The notes beneath the pieces were generated by a model, which was not told the origin of the DNA, did no database searches, and saw nothing but the letters and a program-made list of their open reading frames with translations. Positions 4,118 to 22,267 of a DNA stretch of 64,000 nt are shown here, piece after piece. Within the stretch, counting starts at the first letter, position 1. Each line of letters starts with the position of its first letter. Both the position numbers and the translations under genes were made by a program. The stretch comes from an uncultured Gammaproteobacteria bacterium (GTDB lineage Bacteria > Patescibacteriota > Microgenomatia > Levybacterales > UBA12049): positions 124,127-188,126 of the forward strand of contig CAYRJZ010000003.1 of assembly GCA_964424775.1 (NCBI GenBank), read 5' to 3'.

Positions 4118-4139
4118 GGAGCTATTGTATCACGGTACA

Positions 4140-4706: not shown

Positions 4707-4811
4707 ATATCTATTGTCTGAACAACCATCCGTTCTGTCAACTCACGTATTCTTACATGTTACCTACATTTTCCACTAGACGGCGAAATTATTTTCGTAT
4801 ATTATTTTCTA

Positions 4812-5498
4812 ATGTTCAGTTGCCACATCAAAACATATGGCAAACCTTCTGCCAAAAACATCATCATTTTCCCAGGAGTCGCATTTTCACAGAAATATGG
4901 AACATTTTTAGGATATCTCTTTGCCGCTTGTGGGTACCAAGCTCATGTAATTTACTACTCATCAAATATTTTTGGTACTCATCCAAAAGATATTCGTGAG
5001 AATATTATGCACGTTGTGCATAAAGCCGCTGAACATATCAAAAAAAATAAAAAGAAAAAAATGAGTTGGTATGTATTCGGTACTAGCCTCGGATCAGTTA
5101 TGGCTCTTAAGTTATCCAATGATTTGCCGAAAATCGAAAAGGCTATTATCAACCTTTGTCCATTAAGTCTTTCCTCATCAATCCTCAGTTGGAGTAACCC
5201 ATACAAAAAAATAAAAGATGCTTATTTTAAACACAAAGATATGAATAAAAAAATATTTTCTGAAATATCACCCATATCTCCGGACAATAATATTTCGCAT
5301 GTGAGCAAACAAGAGATTTTGTTTTATATGGCAAAAAACGATAAAATCTTCCCATTCGACGAAGCAAATAAACTTCTAAAAAAGATGGAAGAAAAAGGGA
5401 GTAAAGTGACTGCAGTCATCAATGATAGACACAATCATCAGGTAAGTGAAGCAATAAATATATTTAAGACAGAAACCTATCTTAATTTCCTGAAGTAG
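4812..5498 (+). CDS. putative alpha/beta-fold hydrolase
   Basis: Nucleophile elbow FGTSLGS (GxSxG) followed by Asp/His (NDRHNH) in alpha/beta-hydrolase order. No closer family recognised. Confidence 0.4.
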   Translation: MFSCHIKTYGKPSAKNIIIFPGVAFSQKYGTFLGYLFAACGYQAHVIYYSSNIFGTHPKDIRENIMHVVHKAAEHIKKNKKKKMSWYVFGTSLGSVMALKLSNDLPKIEKAIINLCPLSLSSSILSWSNPYKKIKDAYFKHKDMNKKIFSEISPISPDNNISHVSKQEILFYMAKNDKIFPFDEANKLLKKMEEKGSKVTAVINDRHNHQVSEAINIFKTETYLNFLK

Positions 5499-9205: not shown

Positions 9206-10249
9206 TTACTTACCTTTGACGTACTTATCGAAGAATTCAACAGATCTTTGTGCAGCTATCCCAAAATTACTCGTAATGTCATGATCGTCACCTAGATACT
9301 CATAGTACTCAACAGTCTTTCCTGCATCCTTCATTTGTTTTTCTAATTTTTGCGAGAACTCAACAGGAACTGACTCATCCAGTGTGCCGTGATGCAGTTG
9401 AAGTGGGCCTGAAATATCATCTAAATAGAAATTAGCTGAAATAGATCTCCAGAAAGAAGATGATTCTGAGGGCTGGCCAAATTGTTCAACAAGTGTCTGT
9501 CTCCACCTCCTTGCCCCGCTTGGTAAAGGAGAAGGTGTGACTGTCGAATTTCCTCTCCTCCAGTTATTAACAAGATCTGGATATGATGCTACTACTCCTC
9601 CCCATATGACACCTGCTTTAATATCTTTATTCACGACCATTGAACGAAGTGTTATATATCCTCCCATTGAGTGTCCCCACATCCCTATTCTTTGAGGATC
9701 TGAGTCTTTATATTTTTTCATTGTTGAAAGAGCATTGAGGACATCTATGGTATAGCCATTATTCCCATACCCTCCAGTTGCTTGTCCTTCAGAATTCCCA
9801 TGGCCTCGATAATCAGGTCTGAAAAGAATATATCCATTTCGTGAAAATGCATCTGTATAAGCAATATACCGCTCTGTTGTCACATACTCACGAGGTGGAA
9901 TATATCCATGATTGAAGATTATAACAGGCCAACCTTTTGCTGGCTTTTCTCCCTGAGGAACAGTCAGAAGACCATAAATTTTCAGCCCATCTGACCTGTA
10001 TGAGGCAATATAACGATTGTAATTACTACCAGATGTTAATGTCTCTTCAATTACCAATTCACTTCCTGGTGTTTCTTCCTTTCGAAGACTTTCAATGCTC
10101 AATGGATTAACATTCTCAACAATTTTATCAACAATACTCTCTCCTTCATTCTCATCTGTCGTATTTTGGAGTGAACCATTTGTTCTCTGCCAGAAAAAAA
10201 TAGCAGCGAGTACCAACAGCAGAACAGCTAGCAACCCAATTTTTTTCAT
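9206..10249 (-). CDS. secreted alpha/beta hydrolase (peptidase S9 / dienelactone-hydrolase-like)
   Basis: Signal peptide or TM helix MKKIGLLAVLLLVLAAIFF. Nucleophile elbow WGHSMGG. Downstream Asp/His residues consistent with an S9-type triad. Confidence 0.7.
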   Translation of the reverse strand: MKKIGLLAVLLLVLAAIFFWQRTNGSLQNTTDENEGESIVDKIVENVNPLSIESLRKEETPGSELVIEETLTSGSNYNRYIASYRSDGLKIYGLLTVPQGEKPAKGWPVIIFNHGYIPPREYVTTERYIAYTDAFSRNGYILFRPDYRGHGNSEGQATGGYGNNGYTIDVLNALSTMKKYKDSDPQRIGMWGHSMGGYITLRSMVVNKDIKAGVIWGGVVASYPDLVNNWRRGNSTVTPSPLPSGARRWRQTLVEQFGQPSESSSFWRSISANFYLDDISGPLQLHHGTLDESVPVEFSQKLEKQMKDAGKTVEYYEYLGDDHDITSNFGIAAQRSVEFFDKYVKGK

Positions 10250-10311
10250 GAGGCTATCCTATCAATGGGTATAAAAAATGTAAAGTAGTTACAAAGAAGG
10301 AAGTGGTGAGT

Positions 10312-10341
10312 GGGAGCGCGGACCTCCTAGGCCGCGCTCCC
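10312..10341. terminator. perfect 10-bp GC hairpin GGGAGCGCGG-N10-CCGCGCTCCC (loop contains CCTAGG) immediately 3' of the transporter gene
   Basis: Seen directly in the sequence. Lies 30 bp downstream of the stop of the 10372..11733 minus-strand gene. There is no clean U-run, so a terminator role is uncertain. Confidence 0.4.
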
Positions 10342-10371
10342 ATCACATTACCGCCAACAGCGGTGATCAGA

Positions 10372-11733
10372 CTACAATAGGAAACGAATCATGGACATCC
10401 AGAGAAGGTACACAGCAAAGCCACTTGCGAAGGCCGCAGAGTTGCCTAGCGATGCTTCTCGGATATAACGAAGGTAGGTCATCTTCTCGCCGAGTTTTCC
10501 GAGGATGATAATACCCGGCAGTGAGCCGAGCAACATAATTGGGCCCCCCATCGCCACACTAAAGGCGAGGAGCCCCCACATCCACGGATCACTTGTTGGC
10601 ATGATGATGATCGCAACGGCTGTGAGCGGGACATTGTCAATGAACATGCTCAACAGCCCAAGGATCAGGATCGCGATGATGATTCGTGTCGTGGACGGAT
10701 TATCTCCGAACACGAGACGAGACAGGTCATTGAATGCACCTGTCGTTCTGACCCCCTCAACAATGAGGATGATCGGAACAATGACCAAGAATGTCGCCAG
10801 CTCGACACGCTCGATCGACTTCTCAAGCGTCCGGCTGAGCAACGTCTGTGCTTGCTCCTCAAGCTGTGGGAGCTCAAGGGAATGGACTTGTCCGCTCGTT
10901 CGCAGTTTCTCGATCCTCCTTCTTCTCCCTTCATTGAGGAAGTGATAAAGGCCGGAAGTCACACCGTACGCTCCCATCAATCCCAAGAATGGCGGCATGT
11001 GAGCCGCGTACTTGAAGAGCAAAGGAAGCGTAACAAGAGTGAGAATACCTATGGCCATAACCAGGTAGTCCGTGAAGGTGGGATGGTACGCCTGGGTAGG
11101 ACGGACATGACGTGGGGAGTTACTCAGTTTCCTTGCGAAGAACTTTGACCCCACGTAGGCAGAGGTGATCGCCGATGGGAATGTCATGTAAAACAGTTGG
11201 TCGGGTGCGATCTTGCCGCTCTCGACCACCATTATTGATGTGACATCCCCAAGGAAGCTGAAAACTCCTCCTGCATTTGCATACAGGACAAAGCCCAGGC
11301 AAGCCGTGACGTAGGTAGCAGTGATCTCCTCGGTAACGGTGAGGAATACCACGGTTGAGATTGTAACAAGGACGATGGTGATCGTGACGTTGTCAACGAG
11401 AGCTGAACCGAAAAAGCATACCCAACCCATTCGGTTGAATAGCTTCTGGTCAGTCATGTCTCCTCGGTAGATGACTTGTTGCAGGACGTCGAAGAGCCCA
11501 GCAAAGCCCAGCACAGCAACGAGCGAGAGGGCGTACAAAATGAACATCCCAATCTCGACCGCGTTGAATGTCGCATGCATGATCTCCACTTCGGCTACTT
11601 CGGGGTTATGTCCTCGCCCGAAGAAGAACCAGATAGTAGAGGCGAAGAAGCTCAGGATCGAAATCCTATGGAGCCGTGTTTGAGCCTCAAATGTGAGGAG
11701 CACGTACGCTACAAGCGCTTGTGCAACAATCAT
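10372..11733 (-). CDS. ion-transporter superfamily permease (ArsB/NhaD/CitMHS-like), about 12 TM helices, anomalously high GC
   Basis: 453-aa polytopic membrane protein with the two-half architecture typical of ArsB/NhaD-type permeases. GC is roughly 52-55% by eye against a roughly 38-40% background. Confidence 0.6.
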   Translation of the reverse strand: MIVAQALVAYVLLTFEAQTRLHRISILSFFASTIWFFFGRGHNPEVAEVEIMHATFNAVEIGMFILYALSLVAVLGFAGLFDVLQQVIYRGDMTDQKLFNRMGWVCFFGSALVDNVTITIVLVTISTVVFLTVTEEITATYVTACLGFVLYANAGGVFSFLGDVTSIMVVESGKIAPDQLFYMTFPSAITSAYVGSKFFARKLSNSPRHVRPTQAYHPTFTDYLVMAIGILTLVTLPLLFKYAAHMPPFLGLMGAYGVTSGLYHFLNEGRRRRIEKLRTSGQVHSLELPQLEEQAQTLLSRTLEKSIERVELATFLVIVPIILIVEGVRTTGAFNDLSRLVFGDNPSTTRIIIAILILGLLSMFIDNVPLTAVAIIIMPTSDPWMWGLLAFSVAMGGPIMLLGSLPGIIILGKLGEKMTYLRYIREASLGNSAAFASGFAVYLLWMSMIRFLL

Positions 11734-11812
11734 CCCTGTCCTCCCTGTGTAACTTTCCTGAGTCCGGCACAGTTACCGTGACTCTCCTTTGTTATTCTTT
11801 CCTTTCCTGAAT

Positions 11813-11854
11813 GCTGATACCGGATCAAGGGGCATTGCCTGATCTGGTATCAGC
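11813..11854. other. long imperfect hairpin (about 17-bp stem) in the leader of the transporter gene
   Basis: gctgataccggatcaagg-ggcattg-cctgatctggtatcagc. Located between the antiporter stop (11981) and the transporter start (11733). No U-run on the minus strand. Confidence 0.4.
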
Positions 11855-11980
11855 ATAAATTTCATTTATTCATACATAACGCAATTGTTATGGTGAATGA
11901 AAGGTAGTCTGATTATTAACGTGCAAACCTACAGAAGTAGGGATAGGAATTATAAAGAAAATGAAGAGGAAAAATCAATA

Positions 11981-13933
11981 CTATCGGATGAGAGAGGAGA
12001 TACTTGCCTTTTGATATGTAACAGCAATTTCTGGATACTTCTTTTCAAGACCTTTCACTTCATTTTGATTCTTATCAATAAAGCTTTCCTGAATTTTTCT
12101 TACCTCATCAATTGCTTTCTTCAGATCCTTCTCCGTTATTAATTTATTAACACGATCCAGATATTCAAGAACAGCATAGGACGTAAATAATCGAGCTCTT
12201 AATAGTCCATATCTGTCCCGCACAAGAGAATCCTCAGTCATATCTAACATCTTACTGAGCCATCCAAAAGATGTAGCGAACTTTCGAAGTCTAAATAATC
12301 TCTTTCTAAATGAAGCACCAGTATTTATCATTCCCTCTTTACCAACTGTTCGAATATCCTGAAGATCAGGATACTCCAAAGCATCTTGTTGTATATCTAA
12401 CTCCGATTCAAATTCATGAAAAACAACTTCATTAAATCTTCCCTGTTCATAGAGTTTACGCAGTGTATTTCTTTCAATTGAAAGAGCTTGCAGTTTTAGA
12501 CTTTGTAAAAATTCAGCTGGAGTAGAAATAGTCGTAAGATCTTTCTTAATGCTAAGCTCTTTATTTGCTAATTCTTTATCAATTTCACTGATAATTCCCT
12601 CTTTAAATTGTTGACGAGACAGCTGAGTCAATTTTTGTCTCTTCTCATCAATTTCAAAGAGGGCAAGTTCATCTGCGATGATCTGTTCTTCCTTCTTCGG
12701 TAAATGAAGTTTTAATTTAAGTAAAAGCGATTTTATTGTCAGACCATTAACAAAAAGGGTGAAAAGTAAAGTAGCGAAGGTAAATTGAAGAAAGGTCTCT
12801 TTATATATAAAATCATCAGGAAGAGAATAAACAAGAACGAGCGGAATTACCCCTCTCAATCCTCCCCAGTTCAGAATATGTTGCCAGCTCATTGGAATAT
12901 TGGGCTCGTCATTAAAGAATGGCAATTTGTTACTCAGATAGGCTGTCACATAAACAGACACCGCTCGTGCCACAAGAACCACTGCAATAACAATTGCTAA
13001 TACAGGTAATTGCTCTTGGAATAAAGTAAGGTCGAGCTGATATGCCGCAAAGAAAAAGACGAGTGAAAGTGAAAAAAATCCTGCATACTCCCAAAACTCT
13101 TCAATATAATGCATTACCGTTCCATGTACTTTTCTTCGACCAAAATTACCAACAATGACTCCAGCAATTACGGTCGTAATGACACCTGAAAGATGAAAGA
13201 AATGCTCCGCACCAGTAAAGGAAACGAGCGCTATTCCAGTCGTGACACTTGCAAGAAGTATTCTTTCATGGCGGAGTTTTTCAAAAAGCCATGTAGTAAA
13301 GAATCCAATTACGAATCCCAAAATAATACTTCCAATAAAAACATACAGGAACTGTGCAGTACTCTCAAGAATTGTTAAGGGCTTGAAAGCTGTTTGGGCA
13401 ATTGCAAATGTTGATATAACACGGAATGCAATGACTGCAGTTGCGTCGTTGAACATACTCTCTCCATCTGCAAGAAGAGCAAGTCTTTTAGGTGCTCCTA
13501 ATGACTTAAAAAGAGCAAGGACAGCAATTGGGTCTGTTGCAGATATTAACGCTCCAAAAAGAAGTGCAACAGGTAACGGCATACCAAGCATACTTGCTAA
13601 GGCAAAGCCTACAACAAAGATAGAGACAAGGAGGCCAAATGTGGCAAGAAAAGTAATTGTTTTAAATTGTCTTTTAAATTCATGAATATTGATGTGAAGA
13701 GATGCTTCAAAAAGAAGTATAGGAAGCAATATGAAAAAAATGATATCAGGAGAAAGTGCTAAAGGACCACCTAAATGGACAATATGACCTATAAACTGTG
13801 TAACAAATCCTGCTAGAAGTAATGCAACGGTAAATGGAAATGATACTCTCTTCGTAAGCCATTGAAGTATTCCCATACTTGTTAAAAAAGCTCCGATAAA
13901 TATCACCCCTTCGATAAAAATATGTTTTTCCAT
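11981..13933 (-). CDS. CPA1-family Na+/H+ (cation:proton) antiporter with C-terminal cytoplasmic domain
   Basis: 650 aa, with about 12 TM helices at the N-terminus. Na+/H+ exchanger-family conserved segments (ATDPIAVLALF, FNDATAV). Long hydrophilic C-terminal domain. Confidence 0.8.
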   Translation of the reverse strand: MEKHIFIEGVIFIGAFLTSMGILQWLTKRVSFPFTVALLLAGFVTQFIGHIVHLGGPLALSPDIIFFILLPILLFEASLHINIHEFKRQFKTITFLATFGLLVSIFVVGFALASMLGMPLPVALLFGALISATDPIAVLALFKSLGAPKRLALLADGESMFNDATAVIAFRVISTFAIAQTAFKPLTILESTAQFLYVFIGSIILGFVIGFFTTWLFEKLRHERILLASVTTGIALVSFTGAEHFFHLSGVITTVIAGVIVGNFGRRKVHGTVMHYIEEFWEYAGFFSLSLVFFFAAYQLDLTLFQEQLPVLAIVIAVVLVARAVSVYVTAYLSNKLPFFNDEPNIPMSWQHILNWGGLRGVIPLVLVYSLPDDFIYKETFLQFTFATLLFTLFVNGLTIKSLLLKLKLHLPKKEEQIIADELALFEIDEKRQKLTQLSRQQFKEGIISEIDKELANKELSIKKDLTTISTPAEFLQSLKLQALSIERNTLRKLYEQGRFNEVVFHEFESELDIQQDALEYPDLQDIRTVGKEGMINTGASFRKRLFRLRKFATSFGWLSKMLDMTEDSLVRDRYGLLRARLFTSYAVLEYLDRVNKLITEKDLKKAIDEVRKIQESFIDKNQNEVKGLEKKYPEIAVTYQKASISSLIR

Positions 13934-14084: not shown

Positions 14085-14834
14085 ATGTCAATTGCACTTA
14101 CAGGGAAGAAAAAAGAACAGGCTGAAAAGTTCTACAATAAATTACTCACAACTTTAATTCGACGAAAATTACCTTTCATGGTCGGTGGGACATTTGCGTT
14201 CATGGAATATACAGGAATTGAGCGCGATACGGGTGATATTGATATTAAAATTCCTTTTGAGTCATATCCTGATATTCTCAAGTCTCTCAGTGAAGCTGGA
14301 TATAAAACTGAATTAGCGGAAATTGAACTCAACTGGCTCGCAAAGGTCACTGACCCAGAAGGATTTTATACCGACCTTATTTATGCTGAGAGAAATGGGC
14401 TTTATAAAGTTGAGGCTTCATGGCTTGATCGTTCAGGAGAAGGAACAGTTCTTGGACATAAAGTAAAGCTTGAGCCAGTTGACGAAATGATTCGCTCCAA
14501 AGCATACGTTCAAAATCGTCATCGACATGATGGAATTGATGTTATTCACCTCATCTTGAGACAAGGAAAAAATGTTAATTGGGATCTCCTTCTTGAAAAA
14601 ATGGATGAACACTGGGAGCTACTCTTAGGACATATCATCACTTTCCTTTTTGTTTATCCATCTGAAAGACAAGTTATCCCAACCAAAGTAATAAAGAGGC
14701 TTGTTGGCAAATTAGAAGATCGGATTTCACATCCACCTACAAAAGAAAAAATAACTCGTGGACTTCTTCTCTCAAATGACTATCAAGTCGGTCCTGCGCA
14801 ATGGGGATTCACTCCTATTACAGATTTGAAATAA
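14085..14834 (+). CDS. hypothetical protein, possible pol-beta-type nucleotidyltransferase fold
   Basis: GGTFAF...ERDTGDIDIKI fits the hG[GS]-x(9-13)-Dh[DE]h signature. Otherwise unassigned. Confidence 0.45.
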   Translation: MSIALTGKKKEQAEKFYNKLLTTLIRRKLPFMVGGTFAFMEYTGIERDTGDIDIKIPFESYPDILKSLSEAGYKTELAEIELNWLAKVTDPEGFYTDLIYAERNGLYKVEASWLDRSGEGTVLGHKVKLEPVDEMIRSKAYVQNRHRHDGIDVIHLILRQGKNVNWDLLLEKMDEHWELLLGHIITFLFVYPSERQVIPTKVIKRLVGKLEDRISHPPTKEKITRGLLLSNDYQVGPAQWGFTPITDLK

Positions 14835-14836
14835 CT

Positions 14837-15568
14837 ATGACAGAACGGGTAAAAAAAATAAAAGTTGCTGCTGTTGGAGATATACATGTTAAGTCTCACT
14901 TTAGTGGTGAATATAAAGAATTATTTACATCCGTTTCAGATCAGGCGGATGTCCTCGTACTTTGTGGGGATTTGACTGACCTTGGGACACCTCAAGAAGC
15001 AGAACTCCTTGCAGATGATATGCGCTACTGTAAAATTCCTATCGTTGGAGTTCTCGGCAATCACGATTATCAGTCAGATCAATCAACGGAAGTTGCACGA
15101 ATTCTTGAACAGAATTCCAATGTTACTATTCTCAAACAAGAACCAATTATCCATCATGAAATAGGGTTTGCAGGGGTCAAAGGATTTATGGGAGGGTTTG
15201 ATAGTCATGCGTTGGGAGCATTTGGAGAGCCAGAGCTCAAAGGAATTGTAAAAGAACGAGACAATCACGCTTACGCTTTAGAAAATCAGCTCAAACAACT
15301 TCCTATGGAGAGAAAAGTAGTCATTATGCACTACTCACCTATTCGAGCTACTGTTGCTGATGAACCAGCGGATATCATGCCCTTTCTTGGATCAACACGC
15401 TATGAACAGGTCATCGATCAATACGGTGCAACTGTTGTCTTTCATGGACATGCAAATATGGGACCACACGAAGGACGAACAAAAACAGGTATTCCCGTTT
15501 TTAACGTCGCACTTCCCCTTCTTGAAACACTCAAACCAAGAGTTCAATATAAAATTATTGAACTGTAA
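14837..15568 (+). CDS. metallophosphoesterase (calcineurin-like phosphoesterase)
   Basis: Start moved to MTERVKK (ATG at 14837). Motifs GDIHV, CGDLTDLG, GNHDY, GHAN. Confidence 0.75.
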   Translation: MTERVKKIKVAAVGDIHVKSHFSGEYKELFTSVSDQADVLVLCGDLTDLGTPQEAELLADDMRYCKIPIVGVLGNHDYQSDQSTEVARILEQNSNVTILKQEPIIHHEIGFAGVKGFMGGFDSHALGAFGEPELKGIVKERDNHAYALENQLKQLPMERKVVIMHYSPIRATVADEPADIMPFLGSTRYEQVIDQYGATVVFHGHANMGPHEGRTKTGIPVFNVALPLLETLKPRVQYKIIEL

Positions 15569-15573
15569 ATAAA

Positions 15574-16248
15574 CTATTTGCCAAATCGTCTCTCACGATC
15601 AGTATACCAATCAATTGCGACCTGGAGTTCCTCAGGTGTATAGTCAGGCCAAAGAACATCTGTAAAATACAACTCACTATACACAGATTGCCAGGTGAGG
15701 AAATTACTGAGTCTTTGCTCTCCACCTGTTCTGATAATAAGATCTGGATCTGGTTGTCCGGAAGTATCAAGTAATTCAGAAATCCCTTTCTCAGTTACCT
15801 TTTCTCCCTTTTCCATAAGACATGAAACCGCACGAATAATTTCATCGCGTCCACCGTAATTAAGTGCGAAATTTGCAGTAATGGTGGAATTATCTTTACT
15901 CATCTCATGGATTTCCTCAACTCTCTCAACAATATCCTGAGGGAATGCTGTGTAATTTCCAATAATATTCACTCGTACTCCCTTTTCTTGAAGTCGATCA
16001 ACAGCGGGATCGTGTAACATTTTACGGAAAATAGAAATTATTTTTTGAACCTCAAGCGGATTTCTTTTCCAATTTTCTGTAGAAAAAGAATAAAAAGTAA
16101 TGTATTTAACGCCATTTTTTGCAGCAGCTTCTACGAGAGGCTCAATACACTTTGCACCTTGTTCATGTCCTTCAGAGATTTCAAGTCCTTTTGCCTTTGC
16201 CCATCGTCTATTCCCATCCATGATGATGCCGATATGTTGTGGAGTCAT
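15574..16248 (-). CDS. uppS: undecaprenyl diphosphate synthase (cis-prenyltransferase)
   Basis: Start moved to MTPQHIGIIMDGNRRWA (ATG at 16248). The DGNRRWA and C-terminal ERRFGK motifs are typical of UppS. Confidence 0.9.
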   Translation of the reverse strand: MTPQHIGIIMDGNRRWAKAKGLEISEGHEQGAKCIEPLVEAAAKNGVKYITFYSFSTENWKRNPLEVQKIISIFRKMLHDPAVDRLQEKGVRVNIIGNYTAFPQDIVERVEEIHEMSKDNSTITANFALNYGGRDEIIRAVSCLMEKGEKVTEKGISELLDTSGQPDPDLIIRTGGEQRLSNFLTWQSVYSELYFTDVLWPDYTPEELQVAIDWYTDRERRFGK

Positions 16249-16413
16249 TGTTGAATTATACCAAATAAAAAACGCCTCCTTTATTATCTCCTTAGATAAT
16301 GAGGTAGGCGTTTTATTTCTCAAGCAGAAAGCTGTCTGCACTTCTGTCCAAATCCTGTAAAAATGGACGTACAAACAGCTTCCTGCTCATGAATAAAATG
16401 ATCAAGGATGTAG

Positions 16414-16453
16414 GTCGTCCCCCCGGCTTACGCCGGGGGGACTCCCCAAGACA
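16414..16453. repeat. island hairpin repeat, copy 1 (GTCGTCCCCCCGGCTTACGCCGGGGGGACTCCCCAAGACA)
   Basis: 40-bp element with an 11-bp stem (GTCCCCCCGGC/GCCGGGGGGAC) and loop TTAC, followed by TCCCCAAGACA. Lies 5 bp downstream of the stop of ORF 16458..16766. Confidence 0.85.
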
Positions 16454-16457
16454 AAGA

Positions 16458-16766
16458 TTAATGCCGCCTGATAAATTCATCATAGAAATCAAGAAGATAC
16501 CCTGACACAGGCCAATTTGCCCATATCAGAGCATGATACCACTTGACTTTAAACTTATAGATCTTCTCCACTGTTGTTGTGGAGAAGGTTGTGAGATGAA
16601 GTTGGTAATCATTACCACTCACCTCAACCTTAACCTGGACGATGATAGGTACTCCGTTTTTGGAAGCACGGAGATAGTCATTTTCCAGGCGGACGTGGTA
16701 CCCGGCATCCTGCAGGAGTTTGCCGAGAAACCGAAGTGACGCTTTTTTAAGCTTTTCAGTTCTCAT
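16458..16766 (-). CDS. cassette ORF A, hypothetical 102-aa protein
   Basis: SD-like GAAGGAGTGAGGA before the ATG. Flanked 3' by repeat copy 1 and 5' by a type-1 palindromic leader. No recognisable domain. Confidence 0.5.
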   Translation of the reverse strand: MRTEKLKKASLRFLGKLLQDAGYHVRLENDYLRASKNGVPIIVQVKVEVSGNDYQLHLTTFSTTTVEKIYKFKVKWYHALIWANWPVSGYLLDFYDEFIRRH

Positions 16767-16793
16767 TCCTCACTCCTTCTTGTTAACGGCAGT

Positions 16794-16809
16794 GTTCCTT
16801 CTCAGGAAC
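16794..16809. promoter_or_regulatory. type-1 leader palindrome GTTCCT-TCTC-AGGAAC followed by GAAAAA (upstream of ORF A)
   Basis: The same TTCCT-N4-AGGAA[C/G]AAAAA element recurs at 17309..17324 and 19686..19701. Confidence 0.5.
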
Positions 16810-16848
16810 GAAAAAAGACTTTCTCTTTTCACTCATGAGAATAAAAAG

Positions 16849-16888
16849 GTCGTCCCCCCGGCTTACGCCGGGAGGACTCCCCAAGACA
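16849..16888. repeat. island hairpin repeat, copy 2
   Basis: GTCGTCCCCCCGGCTTACGCCGGGAGGACTCCCCAAGACA. Stem carries one C/A mismatch. Ends 7 bp before the stop of ORF B. Confidence 0.85.
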
Positions 16889-16894
16889 TGTGAG

Positions 16895-17251
16895 CTAGAA
16901 CTCGTCGACCTCGAGCTCGTTCCGAAGAACGACGTAGCCTTGGAAGGCTGGCTCGAGCACGTTCGGATCATCCGAACGGTAGTTGGCCATGATGACCCTT
17001 TCGGGCATGGCCTCAGCAAGCGCCGCCTTTGTGAGAAGCGTCGCCTGACAGTCGAGAACGATGAAGTCTGCACGGTGCTCGAAAGCAGCCGCGATGACTT
17101 CTGCCTGCGTCACCCTCTGATCAGAGGGGACATTCGTCTCAATAACGTGGCAGTCGCTCCCGAATTTTTCCGAGAGCAATTCCCATCGATCGCCTGTCAC
17201 TGGACGAGATGCAAATCGAACGATAACAGTTCGAGGTGTATACGGCCGCAT
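16895..17251 (-). CDS. cassette ORF B, hypothetical 118-aa protein (high GC)
   Basis: SD-like GGAGACAGAACC before the ATG. About 55% GC by eye. Flanked by repeat copy 2 (3') and a type-1 leader (5'). Confidence 0.5.
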   Translation of the reverse strand: MRPYTPRTVIVRFASRPVTGDRWELLSEKFGSDCHVIETNVPSDQRVTQAEVIAAAFEHRADFIVLDCQATLLTKAALAEAMPERVIMANYRSDDPNVLEPAFQGYVVLRNELEVDEF

Positions 17252-17308
17252 GGTTCTGTCTCCATCTGTATGATCCCAGCGTAAGCACGCAGGTCGAAAA
17301 TCACACAG

Positions 17309-17324
17309 CTTCCTTGTGAGGAAG
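17309..17324. promoter_or_regulatory. type-1 leader palindrome CTTCCT-TGTG-AGGAAG followed by AAAAAA (upstream of ORF B)
   Basis: Variant of the 16794..16809 element. Confidence 0.45.
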
Positions 17325-17373
17325 AAAAAATTACTTTCTTTATAACTTCTTTCTCATCACAAAAATTTAGTAG

Positions 17374-17413
17374 GTCGTCCCCCCGGCTTACGCCGGGAGG
17401 ACTCCCCAAGACA
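17374..17413. repeat. island hairpin repeat, copy 3
   Basis: Identical to copy 2 over the 37-bp core. Confidence 0.85.
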
Positions 17414-17530
17414 AATGTGCATTCATGATGCCTCTCGATTCCTCACCTCCGTGAGGGATAACGCATCACTAGGTAGCACACCTAGGCAGTTACAGACATG
17501 CCAGTCTTTAAATTGGGTTGTCCCTGGATG

Positions 17531-17776
17531 CTAGATCCAGATTCCGCGATCGCGTTGTCGCTCCTCTTCGGCCTTGTCGGCCTCCTCCTCGCGGAGGTTG
17601 TCCCGACGGACGATCATCGCCGAGAGAACACGACGCACGCGGGGGGTGTCTGGCAACAAGCCTTTCAGCTTCACCAGATCGGGAACGTAGAGCTTGAACT
17701 CCTCAAGGTCTCTGGACCTTTTCATTTCGGACCAGATCCGCTCGAGCTCCTTGAGCGCCTCTTCCGAGGTCGTCAT
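17531..17776 (-). CDS. cassette ORF C1, hypothetical 81-aa highly charged helical protein
   Basis: RBS GGAGGGTGA before the ATG. Preceded by a type-2 leader at 17777..17840. Confidence 0.5.
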   Translation of the reverse strand: MTTSEEALKELERIWSEMKRSRDLEEFKLYVPDLVKLKGLLPDTPRVRRVLSAMIVRRDNLREEEADKAEEERQRDRGIWI

Positions 17777-17840
17777 TTCACCCTCCTATTTTCTTCATCT
17801 GCTTGACAAGCAGACGGGTCTAACAAAGACCGAGAAATGC
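17777..17840. promoter_or_regulatory. type-2 conserved leader (GGTCTTTGTTAGACCC + short hairpin CTGCTTGTCAAGCAG + SD)
   Basis: Aligns with the leaders at 18537..18603, 19219..19285 and 20170..20240. Consensus on the gene strand is GGTCTTyGTCAAAGrCCCATCCG, then a variable 5-7-bp hairpin, then GGAG and the start codon. Confidence 0.55.
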
Positions 17841-17884
17841 CTTAAATGCACTTTTCGCTCTTAGCAAAACTCCTTGTCGGAGCG

Positions 17885-17926
17885 GGATCTCTCCCGCCCC
17901 GACGATAGACCAAGACAAATGAAGCG
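17885..17926. repeat. island hairpin repeat, degenerate copy (GTCGGAGCGGGATCTCTCCCGCCCCGACGATAGACCAAGACA)
   Basis: Keeps the GTCG start, an internal GC hairpin (GCGGGA-TCTC-TCCCGC) and the terminal CCAAGACAAATG. Lies 5 bp downstream of the stop of ORF C2. Confidence 0.6.
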
Positions 17927-17930
17927 AAAA

Positions 17931-18536
17931 TTAGGCCCCGCTTCCGAGCCTGATAGAGTACACATTCCCGAACTCAGGAATTTGGTACGGGAGGAGCTTG
18001 ATACCCCTCCCCTCCAGACTCTGTCGAACGATTTCCGACCGAATATTGTGGTAGTCGCTGTCTGTGACAGCGAACCACTGTGCCAGCGGAGCCACCTCCG
18101 ACGCGAACGCCGTGATGGTGACGATGTCAGGCTCAGCCTGCATCCCCGCATCGACCGCCGACCAATGCTTGGCCGGCATCGTGACGAGCAGCTCCGGAAC
18201 CTCCGGGCTGAACTTGCTAATCGCGAAGTGCGGGATGATCTCCCGCTGCGCGAATTTGGGGACATCGCCCCCGACCAGTTCGGTCGCGAAGGTGATGGTC
18301 TGACCATCCACCTTCCCCGTTGTCCGCAGCAGGACTTTATCATTCCGAGCGGAGGGCATGACACTCCACGCGATGAGACTCTCGTCGCTTCCCCATTTGG
18401 TGACGACGAGTTTGTCCCCCCTCTGCCGTACCTCGTAACCGAGGGCGGTGAGGGTCCCGGCGAACTCCTTCACCGGGACAGGCCACTCGTGAGAGTGGTA
18501 ATTGAGGAACTCTTCGAGACCAGGGCTGCGGTACAT
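17931..18536 (-). CDS. cassette ORF C2, hypothetical 201-aa protein
   Basis: RBS GGAGGG 5 nt before the ATG. Flanked by the degenerate repeat (3') and a type-2 leader (5'). The overlapping plus-strand ORFs are Arg-rich antisense artefacts. Confidence 0.55.
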   Translation of the reverse strand: MYRSPGLEEFLNYHSHEWPVPVKEFAGTLTALGYEVRQRGDKLVVTKWGSDESLIAWSVMPSARNDKVLLRTTGKVDGQTITFATELVGGDVPKFAQREIIPHFAISKFSPEVPELLVTMPAKHWSAVDAGMQAEPDIVTITAFASEVAPLAQWFAVTDSDYHNIRSEIVRQSLEGRGIKLLPYQIPEFGNVYSIRLGSGA

Positions 18537-18603
18537 GATGTACCCTCCATTTTTCTACACCCGCTTGACTGGCGGATGGGTCTTTGACAAAGACCAAATC
18601 AAT
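18537..18603. promoter_or_regulatory. type-2 conserved leader (GGTCTTTGTCAAAGACCCATCCG ...)
   Basis: Near-perfect 17-bp palindrome GGTCTTTG-T-CAAAGACC, followed by a CCGCCAGTCAAGCGGG hairpin and the SD. Confidence 0.55.
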
Positions 18604-18649
18604 AGCAAATATTTTTACTACTGCTTTGCTTCTTATCAAAATTACGTTG

Positions 18650-18689
18650 GACGTCCCCCCGCCTTTCGGCGGGAGGACTCCCCAAGACA
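18650..18689. repeat. island hairpin repeat, copy 4 (variant GACGTCCCCCCGCCTTTCGGCGGGAGGACTCCCCAAGACA)
   Basis: Stem and loop variant (CGCC-TTTC-GGCG) with compensatory base changes that preserve the hairpin. Confidence 0.85.
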
Positions 18690-18696
18690 TGTGATG

Positions 18697-19218
18697 CTAT
18701 TCAAGCACCTTGTAAGAAATTTTTCCGGGAAGGTACACGTGGTTGAAGTTCGGATCGAGCTCAGCTCGGGTCCCGAAGACCTCCACGATCGTTCGATCGT
18801 GGAACGCGATGTACGCTTCATCGTCGCTCTCAAAAGAGTCAACGTGTTCCCCGAGATTTGGGTCCCAGAACGACTTGTCTTTGAGCCCCGATGCCATCGC
18901 GAGCAGGCGCCACGCCTGACGTGTCTGGTAGTTTTCCCGACCGAAGCCGGGATTGTTCAGCTTCTCGATGGCCTTGCGCACTTTCGGAAGCTCCATCTCG
19001 AGAATCGAGATAGTTTCGCGAAAGTACGGCATGATGTTCCGAGAGAAATCCGGCGTGAGCCGGTCAGTGTTCTCCATCAGCCAGCCGAGGATGTCTCCAG
19101 GATCGAACTCGAGCCAGAGGATCAGCTGGACCACGTCCTGCTCGGACGCGAGCTGCGTTGGAGCGGTAAGCTCCACCAACTCGTCTCGCTGACGAGTCGA
19201 ACCAAAGCTGAGTTTCAT
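18697..19218 (-). CDS. cassette ORF D, hypothetical 173-aa protein
   Basis: SD-like GGAGATTTCC before the ATG. Flanked by repeat copy 4 (3') and a type-2 leader (5'). Confidence 0.55.
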   Translation of the reverse strand: MKLSFGSTRQRDELVELTAPTQLASEQDVVQLILWLEFDPGDILGWLMENTDRLTPDFSRNIMPYFRETISILEMELPKVRKAIEKLNNPGFGRENYQTRQAWRLLAMASGLKDKSFWDPNLGEHVDSFESDDEAYIAFHDRTIVEVFGTRAELDPNFNHVYLPGKISYKVLE

Positions 19219-19285
19219 TGGAAATCTCCTCTAATTCTTCATCCGCACTCACGGATGGGCCTTTGACGAAGACCTTTCAAAGAAA
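19219..19285. promoter_or_regulatory. type-2 conserved leader (GGTCTTCGTCAAAGGCCCATCCG + hairpin CATCCGTGAGTGCGGATG)
   Basis: Aligned to the other type-2 leaders. Confidence 0.5.
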
Positions 19286-19317
19286 TTACTCTGAAAGCTT
19301 TTCATCAAATTTAATAG

Positions 19318-19357
19318 GTTGTCCCCCCGCCTTTCGGCGGGAGGACTCCCCAAGACA
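19318..19357. repeat. island hairpin repeat, copy 5 (variant GTTGTCCCCCCGCCTTTCGGCGGGAGGACTCCCCAAGACA)
   Basis: Same variant as copy 4. Confidence 0.85.
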
Positions 19358-19367
19358 AATACAGATC

Positions 19368-19646
19368 CTACAAGAATTCGTGGACCTGCTTCCGGACGCC
19401 ACGTGGCACGGTGTTGAACACCGGCACGAGACGGAACTGCCACTTCTCGGTCTTGCCGTCGTAACGGCGGACCGAGAGCGCGACGAACCGGTCGATCCTG
19501 GTGATGAGCAGCTCGTAGCTGCCCTGAGACGTGGAGATGTAGTCTTTCCCACCGAGATTGCGGTGGTTGGGCCTCATTCCCCACTTTTTCAGCTTCTCGA
19601 GAACGATCTCGAGAACGACCCGATTATTTTTCTCACGCGTTGACAT
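19368..19646 (-). CDS. cassette ORF E, hypothetical 92-aa protein
   Basis: RBS GGAGG before the ATG. Flanked by repeat copy 5 (3'). A type-1 leader palindrome lies upstream at 19686..19701. Confidence 0.5.
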   Translation of the reverse strand: MSTREKNNRVVLEIVLEKLKKWGMRPNHRNLGGKDYISTSQGSYELLITRIDRFVALSVRRYDGKTEKWQFRLVPVFNTVPRGVRKQVHEFL

Positions 19647-19685
19647 GACTGCCTCCGGTAAAGCTACAGCAGGGTCTCCCTGCCA

Positions 19686-19701
19686 GTTCCTGACGAGGAA
19701 C
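19686..19701. promoter_or_regulatory. type-1 leader palindrome GTTCCT-GACG-AGGAAC followed by GAAAAA (upstream of ORF E)
   Basis: Third copy of the TTCCT-N4-AGGAA[C/G]AAAAA element. Confidence 0.45.
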
Positions 19702-19794
19702 GAAAAATATCGATAAATCGAGACTTATCGCTAATCATCAAAAACTCCTGTGCCGGAGCCCAAGAAAGTTCGTGGAATTTGCCGTAGTCGACGG

Positions 19795-20169
19795 CTAGGC
19801 TCCACGAAGAGCCTGTTTGCTGAGACGGTGCGCCCTGCGGACGCGATAGATGACCTGGATTTCTCGAAAAATGCACCAGAAGCCGTAGCCCCAAGTGCAG
19901 AACCAGAAGATCCAAGCCGTATTGCTGCTCACGTTGTATGTGTAAGCAGCTTCCATGGCGATGAGCGCCGTAAACGCCGGGATTCCTGCGCCGACCCCGA
20001 AGAGTCGGGCATAATGCCCTTCTCCAAGGGCGTCGTCGACATCCTGATCGTGATCGCCAACGAACATCATCAGCCCACCCATGAGGCAGGCCAATATTCC
20101 AGCAACGATCGACCAGGCGACTATGATACAACTTGAAATGATAATAATACCCTCGACGATTTCGCCCAC
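19795..20169 (-). CDS. cassette ORF F, hypothetical small membrane protein (about 124 aa, 3-4 TM helices)
   Basis: Start reassigned to the in-frame GTG at 20169, preceded by GGAGAATTACC and the type-2 leader. The longer ORF-track start at 20298 would run through the leader. Hydrophobic segments IIIISSCIIVAWSIVAGILACLMGGLMMFV and AWIFWFCTWGYGFWCIF. Confidence 0.45.
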   Translation of the reverse strand: MGEIVEGIIIISSCIIVAWSIVAGILACLMGGLMMFVGDHDQDVDDALGEGHYARLFGVGAGIPAFTALIAMEAAYTYNVSSNTAWIFWFCTWGYGFWCIFREIQVIYRVRRAHRLSKQALRGA

Positions 20170-20240
20170 GGTAATTCTCCTCAGCAGATACAAACCCACG
20201 ACCTGTGGGTTAGCCTTTGACGAAGACCACGAAAAAAGCC
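20170..20240. promoter_or_regulatory. type-2 conserved leader (GGTCTTCGTCAAAGGC ... CCCACAGGTCGTGGG hairpin)
   Basis: Aligned to the other type-2 leaders. Confidence 0.45.
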
Positions 20241-20866
20241 TAGCCTCAAATGAAGCTAGACTCACCTTCGTGCTCTCCGTCATGAAAGCACACATCATTA
20301 TTCATTCCGTTGCCCCGCGAGGTCGTTAAGAACACTGATATTTGTTAACGTTCCATCTCTCCGTCTGGTAGGAATCTGAAGGCGACGCCTTTCGTCTGAT
20401 AGATCAGGGCAGAAAATCGACCTTCAGGTTCCTACCTGTTTCGTACTTTGCCGAAGCTTTCGCTTCAATTAGCCTCGAAACAATGTAGGCACTTGTCTTG
20501 GGTTCTTGAGCCATCTTCGTCGTCTTTTGGACGCAATGTCCGAAGATAACGTATCAAGCTTTCAGTACGTTGTAGCATTAGCCAACGATAAATTCAGTTC
20601 CGCAATTTGACCTTTGTATGACAGAGGATGCCGAACTGACTTTATCTGTGGCTATGTGAAGAAAATGAGGCTAAAACACAAAAAAACCAGCCCTGATACT
20701 AGATCTGAGGAATATCGGCTTACAGGCTCCGATATACTCGTGGCTGGTGAAGTAACTATTTAATTTGTTAAAGATGCAATCGAACTGACGATTACAACAC
20801 ACATCCTATCATACTATGGGACTTTTGTCAAGGGGGTACATAGCCTTGATCTGAGGCTAAAAATGA

Positions 20867-22267
20867 TCAGTCTGAGGCTAACTTTTTTATCTCCACTCCT
20901 GAGGCTGTATCCTGGATATCAAAACCCAGCTTTTTGATCTTATTTCGAATATGATCAGCCTGGACATATTGCTTATTCTTACGGGCTATTCTTCGCTCTT
21001 CTATAAGAGCCGTTACGTCCTCAGGTACATCCGCTGGCTTCCCAGCTGTAGCCTCATAAAACTCACGAAGCCCAAGTCCCAACACTTCATCCATCTTAAA
21101 GAGCGTGTGGAGCTTCTGTTCCTCAGGTATTTCAGCTTTGATCATCTCCCACATGACAGCAACTGCTTGAGGGGTATTGAGGTCATCATTGAGTGCCTCG
21201 AAAAATTTCTCTTCAAATTCATGAGCCCCTTCCTCCCCTTCTTTCCATTTCACGATAATATTGTGAAGTCGCTCAAGCGCATTTTTGCCAGCCTCAAGAG
21301 CGGCAAAAGTAAAATTCATTTCCTGTCGATAATGTGCGTTGAGATAGAGATATCGAAGATGCTCTGGGCTAAATCCCTCTTTTTCCAGATCATAAAGACG
21401 ATAATTATTCCCCTTACTTTTACTCATTCGCTCACCTGCAACGAGCATAAAAGCAGAATGTACCCAGTACTTAGCGAATTGCTGATGAGTCACTGCCTCA
21501 GATTGTGCAATTTCATTCGGATGATGTGTTTCTTTCAGGTCAATCCCTCCAGCATGAATATCAAAACTCTCACCCAAATACTTCATGCTCATCGCCGAAC
21601 ACTCAATATGCCAGCCGGGAAATCCTTTGCCCCATGGACTTTCCCACTCCATCTGTCTCTTTTCATCCTTTGGTGAGAACTTCCACAGTGCAAAATCACG
21701 AGGATTTCTTTTTTGAGGATTTACTTCGACTCGTGCTCCTTCTTTTATCTCATCAAGAGATGAGAGTTGGCCATATTCTGGAAAGAGTGACGTGTCAAAA
21801 TAAATCCCATCATCAGTTGTGTAAGTATAACCATTGTCCTCAAGTCTTTTTACGAGATCTATCTGCTCCTCGATATGATCCGTTGCTTTGGCAAAAAGCT
21901 CTGGCTGGGTAAGTCCCAATTTTTTGTAATCGTCAAGAAATGCATCGGCATAAAATGCAGCAACTTCCCAGGCTGTTTTTCCTTCTTTCGCTGCAGATTT
22001 TTCCATACGATCCTCGCCCGTATCAGCATCACCCAAATTATCTCCTGTTAAATGCCCAACGTCTGTTAGGTTCATGATGTATTTAACATCATATCCTTGT
22101 GCTTTCAGTGTCCGGATAAGGATATCTGCAGTGGTATACGTTCGGAAATTTCCGATATGTGCAAAACTATACACTGTTGGACCACAGGTATACATTCCCA
22201 CTTTTCCAGGTGTAAGAGACTTAAATTCTTCAACTTCTCGTGACAATGAATTAAAGAGACGTAACAT
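20867..22267 (-). CDS. cysS: cysteinyl-tRNA synthetase
   Basis: Class I motifs HIGN and KMSKS (RMSKSKGN). Length and order match CysS. Confidence 0.92.
   Translation of the reverse strand: MLRLFNSLSREVEEFKSLTPGKVGMYTCGPTVYSFAHIGNFRTYTTADILIRTLKAQGYDVKYIMNLTDVGHLTGDNLGDADTGEDRMEKSAAKEGKTAWEVAAFYADAFLDDYKKLGLTQPELFAKATDHIEEQIDLVKRLEDNGYTYTTDDGIYFDTSLFPEYGQLSSLDEIKEGARVEVNPQKRNPRDFALWKFSPKDEKRQMEWESPWGKGFPGWHIECSAMSMKYLGESFDIHAGGIDLKETHHPNEIAQSEAVTHQQFAKYWVHSAFMLVAGERMSKSKGNNYRLYDLEKEGFSPEHLRYLYLNAHYRQEMNFTFAALEAGKNALERLHNIIVKWKEGEEGAHEFEEKFFEALNDDLNTPQAVAVMWEMIKAEIPEEQKLHTLFKMDEVLGLGLREFYEATAGKPADVPEDVTALIEERRIARKNKQYVQADHIRNKIKKLGFDIQDTASGVEIKKLASD

Follow-up and report, generated by a model that had tools for sequence, protein, structure and literature searches.

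A hypervariable array of single-gene cassettes with structured junctions between cysS and uppS in a Patescibacteria lineage

The locus described here raises the question of what kind of system assembles a run of small, unrelated genes, interspersed with hairpin repeats, at one site of a bacterial chromosome. It lies between the genes cysS and uppS in a 64,000-nt stretch (hereinafter the window; contig CAYRJZ010000003.1 of GenBank assembly GCA_964424775.1) whose cysS product finds its best organism-named matches in Patescibacteria, tiny bacteria of symbiotic type. An original prediction had taken it for an integron-like array without an integrase or, alternatively, for a family of small-protein modules sharing a 3′ RNA-stability or terminator hairpin. 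To our knowledge, no machinery for stockpiling and shuffling single-gene cassettes is well understood apart from integrons, which are defined by the integrase IntI and DNA-folding attC sites. The locus shows integron-like outward behavior in a Patescibacteria genome without these defining parts, and its repeats bear an RNA-structure signature. We lean, with modest confidence, towards reading it as a lineage-specific, hypervariable, promoter-driven cassette operon, the junction modules of which would act in the mRNA and as recombination joints. This reading builds on the anatomy of the locus, strand-specific structure, empty sites, cassette turnover and purifying selection, all of which we observed directly.

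The cassette island and its counterparts in relatives

All genes of the block lie on the minus strand, and coordinates are given throughout as 1-based positions on the plus strand of the window. Along the minus strand, cysS (20867-22267) is followed by about 640 nt of non-coding sequence, by seven open reading frames (ORFs) in the order ORF7, ORF6, ORF5, ORF4, ORF3, ORF2 and ORF1, and by uppS. The left edge of the island falls at 20878, inside the final codons of cysS, and its other end at about 16249, giving an insert of 4.6 kb. The originally proposed extent (16414-20240) was too small and omitted the conserved non-coding stretch of about 640 nt (20229-20866), which harbors what we term the platform. 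The predicted high-GC block between uppS and cysS is real, with a GC content per kilobase of 0.53-0.57 at 17-20 kb versus about 0.35-0.40 over most of the window (the window as a whole being at about 38% GC). ORF1 has just 44% GC; the platform and junction modules are AT-rich and host-like, unlike the cassette genes. The island and its genes, with the GC content at third codon positions (GC3) and, for one gene, the ratio of nonsynonymous to synonymous substitution rates (dN/dS), are as follows.

16249-20878, minus strand: whole island between cysS and uppS, comprising the platform, seven cassettes and the distal terminator/uppS promoter
19795-20172, minus strand: cassette 1 gene, ORF7, 125 aa, GTG start after GAGGAG, GC3 0.63
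19368-19646, minus strand: cassette 2 gene, ORF6, 92 aa, family F1, dN/dS 0.05 versus relative L004
18697-19218, minus strand: cassette 3 gene, ORF5, 173 aa, GC3 0.72, no family match
17931-18536, minus strand: cassette 4 gene, ORF4, 201 aa, GC3 0.77
17531-17776, minus strand: cassette 5 gene, ORF3, 81 aa, GC3 0.77
16895-17251, minus strand: cassette 6 gene, ORF2, 118 aa, GC3 0.62
16458-16766, minus strand: cassette 7 gene, ORF1, 102 aa, GC3 0.48, family F2
16249-16400, minus strand: conserved distal end, with a long hairpin AAGCTGTTTGTACGTCC...CAGACAGCTTT, an intrinsic terminator (16269-16314 plus T6) and a TGGTATAAT promoter for uppS

Our comparison set consists of five arrays in two sub-clades, namely those of the window and of the relatives' contigs L004, L005 (identical to L006, and to L007 over a shorter overlap), L008 and L011. 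In three further relatives with 72-73% identity in cysS (L010, L014 and L015), cysS and uppS are 28-39 nt apart, and the synteny downstream in L014 is that of the window; the block as a whole has accordingly been inserted. The contigs of the closest clade (cysS 82-95% identical; L004, L005/6/7, L008 and L011) all carry both platform and array. Of these, L005 crosses the entire locus, with eight small ORFs as we read it, where the contig's own annotation has seven, TTGTCTTGGGAGTTCCCCCGGCGAAAGCCGGGGGAACAACC in seven copies, and an island GC of 0.45-0.58 versus 0.32-0.41 in the flanks; one near-complete relative genome measures 1.08 Mb. At the boundary itself, cysS of the window is three codons (ASD) longer than in the empty-site relatives. 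A tandem pair of the motif TTAGCCTCAGA stands at this boundary (20857-20905), and TAGCCTCA or its complement, perhaps a motif with a structural or boundary role, occurs three further times in the platform. A candidate 10-nt target duplication around the island (TGATCATTTT) was dropped, since it is missing from L005. The window contains no tRNA gene, and a search for a tRNA or tmRNA that could have served as integration site was negative.

Beyond the platform, array content changes between close relatives. L011 and L005 are 98.3% identical through cysS and the platform up to the platform/array joint motif ...TTTTTTCGTGGTCTTCGTCA, after which L011 continues into an unrelated first cassette. The window and L004, with 89% nucleotide identity over cysS and platform, diverge at the same joint base; their first cassettes differ, and the second (ORF6) is common to both at 93% nucleotide identity. 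Cassette 1 of L004 is cassette 2 of L008 (79% nucleotide, 73% amino acid identity), its own hairpin (type C, below) traveling along, and L005 and L008 share 96% identity as far as the end of cassette 1, from where on they are unrelated. Between the window and L005 there is no detectable shared cassette DNA: only junction pieces align, and the families F1 and F2 recur solely as diverged proteins (28-36% amino acid identity). The presence of four different first cassettes at one point, together with one family at different array positions, supports cassette turnover by replacement or shuffling, and this turnover is seen between strains with flanks 96-98% identical. Both the presence/absence and the cassette shuffling envisaged in the original prediction are thus found among the relatives, the former as the empty sites of L010, L014 and L015 and the latter as cassettes replaced or moved among arrays.

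Several further observations concern the relatives' arrays. Two paralogous cassettes of L005 (c3, 12930-13553, and c7, 15380-15928) encode proteins with 28% amino acid identity behind leaders that are 96% identical over 102 nt, and unrelated cassettes have an identical translation start context, GGGGGAAAAAATG. The clade of L005, L008 and L011 (82% cysS identity) also has two extra genes between ybaB and prs (3439-6218) that are missing in the window lineage, one encoding a 467-aa protein with a faint ParB_N match and the other a 450-459-aa protein with GerE helix-turn-helix domains.

The seven predicted same-strand ORFs of 81-201 aa were recovered as such, all on the minus strand. GC content by codon position follows GC3 > GC1 > GC2 in five of the seven, and GC2 is lowest in every one; GC3 is 0.62-0.80 in six ORFs and 0.48 in ORF1, as against 0.23-0.36 in host genes, and spans 0.43-0.80 for cassette genes across all arrays. 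Cassette gene pairs among relatives yielded dN/dS values of 0.05, 0.12 and 0.28. On account of this GC3 pattern and of dN/dS values of 0.05-0.28, the ORFs are genuine genes under purifying selection. Their coding status, which the original prediction had left to comparative data, is affirmed by this signature (GC3 0.48-0.80 in the window). We likewise concur with the claim that they lack recognizable domains, as none of the seven obtained a significant match in Pfam, PADLOC or PHROGs. Family F1 is present in four of the five arrays (the visible L011 cassette being different); a profile search with it recovered a single matching protein, from its own lineage, and exhaustive profile searching of 1.84e9 representative proteins yielded nothing further but T/V-rich immunoglobulin (Ig)-repeat adhesins, which we judged compositional. 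A word-limited search of 5.8e9 proteins found no homologue of ORF4, and exact-protein look-ups of ORF4 and cysS of the window matched no record. AlphaFold2 (AF2) predicts an alpha-beta5-alpha model for ORF6 (pLDDT [predicted local distance difference test] 72), whose modeled fold would be a generic alpha+beta saddle seen also in immunity proteins, chaperones and phage regulators; the AF2 model of ORF4, made without an alignment, was unusable (pLDDT 39). ORF7 is hydrophobic and, by inspection, probably a membrane protein. Between the stop of ORF3 and the next repeat lie 115 extra nucleotides (17414-17530) with two hairpins, a Shine-Dalgarno-like site GGAGGTGAGG and an ATG mini-ORF that enters the repeat; this stretch may be a decayed or ORF-less cassette.

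Platform, junction hairpins and the joint between them

The non-coding stretch that separates cysS from the first cassette (platform sequence motif GGCTAATGCTACAACGTACTGAAAGCT) contains the following features.

20803-20831, minus strand: platform promoter TTGACA-17-TAGGAT with TG extension, best sigma-70 match (10/12)
20229-20796, minus strand: structured non-coding platform RNA of about 570 nt, of predicted structure, conserved among arrays
20680-20747, minus strand: internal terminator-like hairpin CCAGCC...GGCTGG plus U7 (helix 3, seven invariant pairs, then a T-run)
20490-20503, plus strand: 'anti-repeat', the junction core TTGTCTTGG in inverted orientation, reading CCCAAGACAAG in the platform RNA
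20217-20286, minus strand: platform terminal long hairpin of 29 bp, its inner part a terminator-like stem plus U6 (minimum free energy -43.2 kcal/mol, z = -8.9)
20212-20228, minus strand: platform/array junction, palindrome GGTCTT-CGTCA-AAGGCT, array homology ending after ...GGTCTTCGTCA

The platform promoter is the top sigma-70 match in the 5.5 kb scanned and has a counterpart in L005 (TTGACA-17-TATATT); sense-strand matches inside the array are weaker (9/12), one in a junction and one within ORF1. With the top promoter match at the start of the platform, and a terminator and a new uppS promoter at the distal end (in L005 at about 16345-16460), the locus appears to be a single transcription unit of promoter, platform RNA, seven genes and terminator. 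Conservation across the approximately 640 nt that follow cysS is strong, and the lengths of the indels there are not divisible by three. RNAalifold predicts 164 pairs in the platform, 15 of which are compensatory (both sides changed between the two sub-clades) versus 0-1 in slid controls, as computed from four sequences that amount to essentially one phylogenetic contrast, the structure being derived from those same sequences. The internal terminator-like hairpin lies about 125 nt past the promoter, and the terminal hairpin folds at -43.2 kcal/mol on the sense strand versus -25.0 on the antisense strand. A scan of the window against Rfam 15 returned no match at gathering score, its E-value mode giving sub-threshold noise only. 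Identity of the platform as a group II intron was rejected (no domain V, no Rfam match), as were a hammerhead ribozyme at UUGAUGAG (core unsuited, no Rfam match) and junction promoters at TTGATG, the spacing of which to -10-like hexamers is inconsistent.

The junctions behind the genes are composite. Their first element is a GC-rich hairpin (H1), which on the coding strand after the genes reads TGTCTTGGGGAG-GTCCTCCCGGC-GTAA-GCCGGGGGGAC-GACC.

16414-16454, minus strand: H1 copy 1, with a perfect stem, at the end of the array (0-1 mismatch set)
16849-16889, minus strand: H1 copy 2 (0-1 mismatch set), the only H1 copy with a T-run near enough for a terminator-like flag
17374-17414, minus strand: H1 copy 3 (0-1 mismatch set)
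17878-17918, minus strand: H1 of type B, TTGTCTTGGTCTATC plus a 12-bp stem with GAGA loop
18650-18690, minus strand: H1 copy 4
19318-19358, minus strand: H1 copy 5, TTGTCTTGGGGAG plus an 11-bp stem with GAAA loop
19745-19768, minus strand: vestigial junction core between ORF7 and ORF6, TTTCTTGGG fused to the 3′ arm of a type C hairpin, with an internal deletion

The five originally listed copies, at 16414, 16849, 17374, 18650 and 19318, were found at those coordinates and, on the minus strand, 3′ of ORF stops as claimed. The 15-nt tail GGACTCCCCAAGACA has exactly these five copies and none elsewhere in the 64 kb (at no more than three mismatches, 7 matches against 1.07 expected), and the copies at 18650 and 19318 are 83-91% identical over a 54-nt family, D1. 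The inventory was nevertheless incomplete, as it lacked the seventh, internally deleted site at 19745-19768, and the supposedly degenerate copy at 17885 is in fact a second hairpin type, with a 12-bp stem and a GAGA loop, that recurs with compensatory changes in L005 (12880-12930). We distinguish three types, of which A is common, B is found at 17878-17918 and in L005, and C is found in L004 and L008 and as a vestige in the window; intact type C hairpins occupy the same place in L004 and stand behind the homologous cassette in L008, with a G-C to A-U compensatory change between the two. Scripted pair statistics across these types showed that they have in common only the 5′ core TTGTCTTGG, a stem of 11-12 bp and, for 14 of the 17 loops, the GNRA form. 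The stems of the 40-nt element are perfect or contain G·U, with no extrahelical bases. The change of CGGC/GCCG to CGCC/GGCG in copies 4 and 5 is indeed compensatory; the C/A mismatch noted in copies 2-5 is present on the plus strand but becomes G·U pairing when the coding strand is read. Since the mismatches are G·U on that strand, the sense fold is the stabler one in 14 of 16 GC hairpins. In L005, the copy at 14462-14504 has the loop TTTC in place of GAAA, its palindromic stem being unchanged, and sits in a 118-nt junction duplication (L005 12397-12514 and 14456-14573); such loop inversion is typical of DNA-level events at palindromes.

Because the hairpin stands at gene ends, as REP (repetitive extragenic palindromic) elements and terminators do, one might suspect a generic genome repeat or, failing that, an assembly chimera. 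Either is hardly credible, and both are largely refuted. The repeat has no copy outside the island in the 64-kb window and none in over 100 kb of the relatives' flanks, so that its island restriction, left for checking by the original prediction, holds in all flanks of the five arrays examined; exact 19-nt core scans of genome, metagenome and viral contig collections gave chance matches only (mreB in L001, unrelated sequence in L002 and L003). A U-run follows closely behind only one of six copies, and among the GC hairpins only copy 2 passes a terminator scan. As for a chimera, the same platform stands beside cysS in independent JGI, ENA and Logan assemblies, and two contigs span cysS to uppS.

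The second junction element, absent from the original prediction, is a long hairpin (LH) located 10-20 nt downstream of the GC hairpin at every junction and also at the platform end.

19690-19741, minus strand: LH of the ORF7/ORF6 junction, z = -5.4
19263-19308, minus strand: LH of the ORF6/ORF5 junction, z = -6.0
18584-18639, minus strand: LH of the ORF5/ORF4 junction, z = -5.2
17818-17870, minus strand: LH of the ORF4/ORF3 junction, z = -3.7
17308-17368, minus strand: LH of the ORF3/ORF2 junction, z = -3.7
16794-16844, minus strand: LH of the ORF2/ORF1 junction, of the GTTCCT-GAGA-AGGAAC type, z = -3.65

LH is an imperfect hairpin of 19-29 bp bounded by conserved bases (UUUGAUGA... ...UCGUCAAA or the GTTCCT-type variant), the interior of which is fully variable in sequence with the fold retained, and which by inspection consists of an inner stem and then U5-U7, the stems being AU-rich and the U-run itself paired within LH. 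All 13 tested copies fold as a single hairpin (z = -3.6 to -8.9) and are 6-18 kcal/mol stabler on the sense than on the antisense strand; 51 of their 286 pairs (18%) are G·U. A third, short hairpin of variable sequence precedes the strong Shine-Dalgarno site, and at most junctions the genes are joined to these modules 1-15 nt from their stop codons. Ranking all 60-nt windows of the 64 kb by stability on the sense strand places 67 of the top 79 within the island. G·U-rich stems, variable sequence with constant fold, and GNRA loops together constitute a signature of RNA structure rather than of a site for DNA recombination, by which the GC hairpins and LHs are to be read as RNA elements.

The anti-repeat of the platform invites a reading that links platform and junctions directly. 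It is the sole copy of the exact 9-mer outside the junctions, where chance predicts 0.81 copies in the whole window (128 kb of sequence) and about 0.007 in the platform alone, and it is conserved in L004, L005 and L008. In a guide-RNA-type system, the anti-repeat CCCAAGACAAG would pair with the core UUGUCUUGG at the junctions, either in RNA, in the manner of a tracrRNA (trans-activating CRISPR RNA), or in DNA, in the manner of a bridge RNA. The inverted 9-nt core does lie in the most conserved part of the platform, in all arrays, and by inspection the complementarity reaches 11-14 nt in several junctions. We nonetheless regard this as very improbable: no Cas9, IS110 or other effector was found among the ORFs of the 64-kb window, a duplex of 9-14 bp is short for RNase III, the anti-repeat has its partner inside the platform in the RNAalifold structure (helix 13), and the core is invariant, so that no covariation signal is possible.

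The joint between platform and array bears on how cassettes arrive. Four unrelated first cassettes (those of the window, L004, L005/L008 and L011) adjoin one and the same platform base, ...GGTCTTCGTCA, which is the center of a 17-bp palindrome, GGTCTT-CGTCA-AAGACC; all arrays agree in its left half-site, and the right one differs according to the cassette that comes in (AAGGCT, ATGACC, AAGACC, GAGGAC). Such a fixed joint would suit site-specific, integron-like capture, in which an unlinked recombinase (tyrosine/Xer-like, HUH or other) acts on folded or palindromic sites and inserts circular cassettes at the platform end and cuts them out again at junctions; the sites would be either LH with its bases TTTGATGA/TCGTCAAA or the palindrome, and the RNA properties would be secondary. 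Closely related arrays differ at platform-proximal positions wherever they can be compared, one cassette occurs with its own hairpin at different positions, the cassettes are uniformly oriented and mostly promoterless, the hairpin variants are array-specific as in chromosomal integrons, and LH resembles attC in being constant in fold and bases and variable in sequence and length. Against these points, the internal breakpoints are mosaic (in the hairpin 3′ arm, in TTTGATG, or in the palindrome/GGTCTTCGTCA) rather than at one fixed base; the island has no GTTRRRY/RYYYAAC box pairs; no recombinase, transposase, reverse transcriptase or Cas domain was found in about 50 ORFs of the window or in the array-flanking genes; and the 18% G·U in LH, with the sense strand favored in 13 of 13 copies, is what selection on RNA predicts and selection on DNA does not. 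We hold capture of this kind to be a minor possibility.

Tests of class membership and weighing of the readings

Integron integrases recombine at the RYYYAAC/GTTRRRY sites (PMC8876359). A regular-expression scan of both strands found no RYYYAAC...GTTRRRY pair in the island, and five of the six repeats have no attC box within 20 nt, a single RYYYAAC/GTTRRRY match lying beside the copy at 18650. Domain searches covered about 50 ORFs in the window, the seven cassette ORFs with Pfam, PADLOC and PHROGs and about 40 others with Pfam. They detected no recombinase, in agreement with the originally noted absence of an integrase from the window, nor any domain of a transposase, reverse transcriptase or Cas protein; among the genes called next to the five arrays there is likewise no recombinase. 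Membership in the integrons was accordingly rejected (no intI, no attC boxes, no extrahelical bases, and a fold favored on the coding rather than the bottom strand), as was that in the clusters of attC sites lacking integron-integrases (CALINs), because the repeats lack the paired attC core boxes and measure 40 nt versus 57-141 nt. Of the proposed integron-like array, the modular single-gene cassettes, foreign composition, fixed site and turnover stand; the equation of the hairpin with attC does not, given the lack of a box pair, the perfect stem, the coding-strand G·U, the GNRA loops in 14 of 17 cases and the lack of a recombinase in the window. The alternative, in which the modules have a hairpin for RNA stability or termination in common at their 3′ ends, comes closer to the evidence but misses the platform and LH. 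The array is also, as had been stated, no CRISPR (clustered regularly interspaced short palindromic repeats) locus, its intervals being 0.4-1.3 kb long and coding (dN/dS 0.05-0.28) and Cas domains lacking. No Y1 transposase domain of the kind found in RAYTs (REP-associated tyrosine transposases) was detected in the window ORFs, and a diversity-generating retroelement was rejected for want of a template/variable repeat pair, a reverse transcriptase and adenine depletion.

Small ORFans with strong Shine-Dalgarno sites and RNA hairpins of about 20 bp between them also recall the early operons of phages. The locus could be a remnant or domesticated module of this kind, T7-early-like and derived from a phage, plasmid or satellite, that varies by ordinary recombination with mobile elements; its foreign composition, its organization as a self-contained unit with its own promoter and terminator, and the modeled saddle fold of ORF6, known also from immunity proteins, chaperones and phage regulators, would fit such an origin. 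This we consider improbable. A blastn search of the island against phages and plasmids gave no match to any record, no PHROG or PADLOC family was matched, and no structural, replication or integration genes lie nearby. Scans of viral contigs with platform and junction motifs found nothing real: no IMG/VR contig has the repeat or the platform, and the leader motif gave one chance match in a coding region (L013). The platform and modules, moreover, are AT-rich and host-like, unlike the genes.

We return to the preferred reading, the promoter-driven cassette operon. As we picture it, one promoter would drive the platform RNA and the array; the core UUGUCUUGG with its GC hairpin of 11-12 bp would block 3′ exonucleases and so protect the 3′ end of each cistron; LH would act as an attenuator, an RNase III-type processing site, or both; and the short palindrome with the leader hairpin ahead of the Shine-Dalgarno site would form the 5′ leader of the next cistron. 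Unrelated genes share the modules, which could for this reason double as recombination joints, and recombination there would replace, move and duplicate cassettes, whether by homologous exchange or through an unlinked site-specific enzyme. We infer these RNA roles, the polycistronic transcription and the recombination mechanism from the sequences compared.

Several considerations weigh against this reading. RNA ends, processing and read-through are all deduced from sequence. The covariation of the platform rests on five arrays in two sub-clades, essentially one phylogenetic contrast; folding of the sense strand as DNA would, strictly speaking, be compatible with the G·U argument too; and the flipped loop of one copy (UUUC, L005 14462), together with one type C loop in L008 that is not GNRA, is unexpected if loop identity matters in RNA. 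Further, homologous recombination alone leaves unexplained both the joining of foreign ORFs (GC3 up to 0.80) to host-like modules 1-15 nt from their stops and the abutting of four cassettes on exactly one platform base. On account of this gene-module joining, the sharp platform joint and the unexplained role of the platform RNA and anti-repeat, we keep a dedicated capture mechanism alive as a minority view. One form that it might take, to which we would give tentative consideration only, is an undescribed kind of cassette platform, in which foreign genes are captured singly at the fixed base ...GGTCTTCGTCA, behind a promoter and a structured RNA with its anti-repeat, and set between standard RNA-structured modules, by a non-integrase route that is RNA-guided or passes through an RNA intermediate; a link to RNA is suggested by the coincidence of cassette limits with RNA structural elements.

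The array is unusual and apparently undescribed, known from five arrays in one narrow lineage, and nothing comparable turned up in our literature searches. Were a dedicated capture mechanism to exist, it would constitute a second, independent solution to modular gene acquisition, perhaps linked to RNA, in the least understood large bacterial radiation. The conservative reading still yields a new structured RNA of about 570 nt, a compact natural set of standard expression parts, and lineage-restricted proteins under purifying selection, whose GC3 of up to 0.80 in a host near 0.3 needs explaining.

Elsewhere in the window, a gene for a CitMHS-family transporter (10372-11733, minus strand) occupies a patch of 48% GC (10240-11880) and is flanked by two very stable hairpins, GGGAGCGCGG...CCGCGCTCCC (about 10318-10350) and ATGCTGATACC...GGTATCAGCAT (about 11810-11860); it is present at the same place in L014 and is hence not strain-specific. 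Two paralogous SdrD_B-domain proteins of about 950 aa (47216-50071 and 52282-55110) are each preceded by small ORFs without a Pfam match, and the second contains a poly-proline coding repeat, CCACCTCCA..., at 52611-52700.

Comparison with known systems

Like CRISPR arrays with their tracrRNA, the locus has a leader, hairpin repeats at regular spacing and, upstream, an RNA with an anti-repeat; it differs in that the 'spacers' are coding genes of 0.4-1.3 kb, in having no cas genes, and in an anti-repeat of only 9-14 nt. REP elements and BIMEs (bacterial interspersed mosaic elements) serve as intercistronic mRNA stabilizers, as does the REP between malE and malF. Like them, H1 is a GC-rich palindrome of about 40 nt located 3′ of stops inside an operon and a plausible barrier to 3′ exonucleases. 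Unlike REP elements, which are dispersed genome-wide in many copies and linked to RAYTs, it is confined to one island, with each copy tied to a cassette and two further hairpins.

The early region of phage T7 has intercistronic RNase III sites between small accessory genes, and processing there would leave a stable 3′ stem-loop. Small accessory genes, one upstream promoter and imperfect RNA hairpins of about 20 bp between the genes are found here too, and by analogy with RNase III-type operons the LHs (19-29 bp, sense-specific) could be counterparts of such sites. The locus differs from T7 in being chromosomal, with no phage genes nearby, in varying cassette by cassette to a hypervariable degree, and in having an extra GC hairpin and a long conserved leader RNA.

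Integrons and CALINs offer the closest parallel in outward behavior: a fixed promoter platform followed by same-orientation, mostly promoterless single-gene cassettes, each ending in a structured repeat; content that differs between close relatives, with the same cassette at different positions; array-specific repeat variants; and small cargo of unknown function. In arrangement, the conserved promoter and the fixed joint ...GGTCTTCGTCA might correspond to Pc and attI; the joint has no sequence relation to attI. On the other side, no IntI occurs in the 64 kb and no 7-bp GTTRRRY core paired with a RYYYAAC inverse core is present; integrons depend on the fold of their bottom DNA strand, whereas here the coding (RNA) strand is favored and G·U-rich; and the place of intI/attI is taken by a structured non-coding RNA platform of about 570 nt in a Patescibacterium host. 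The integron label thus fails on membership and holds as a behavioral analogy.

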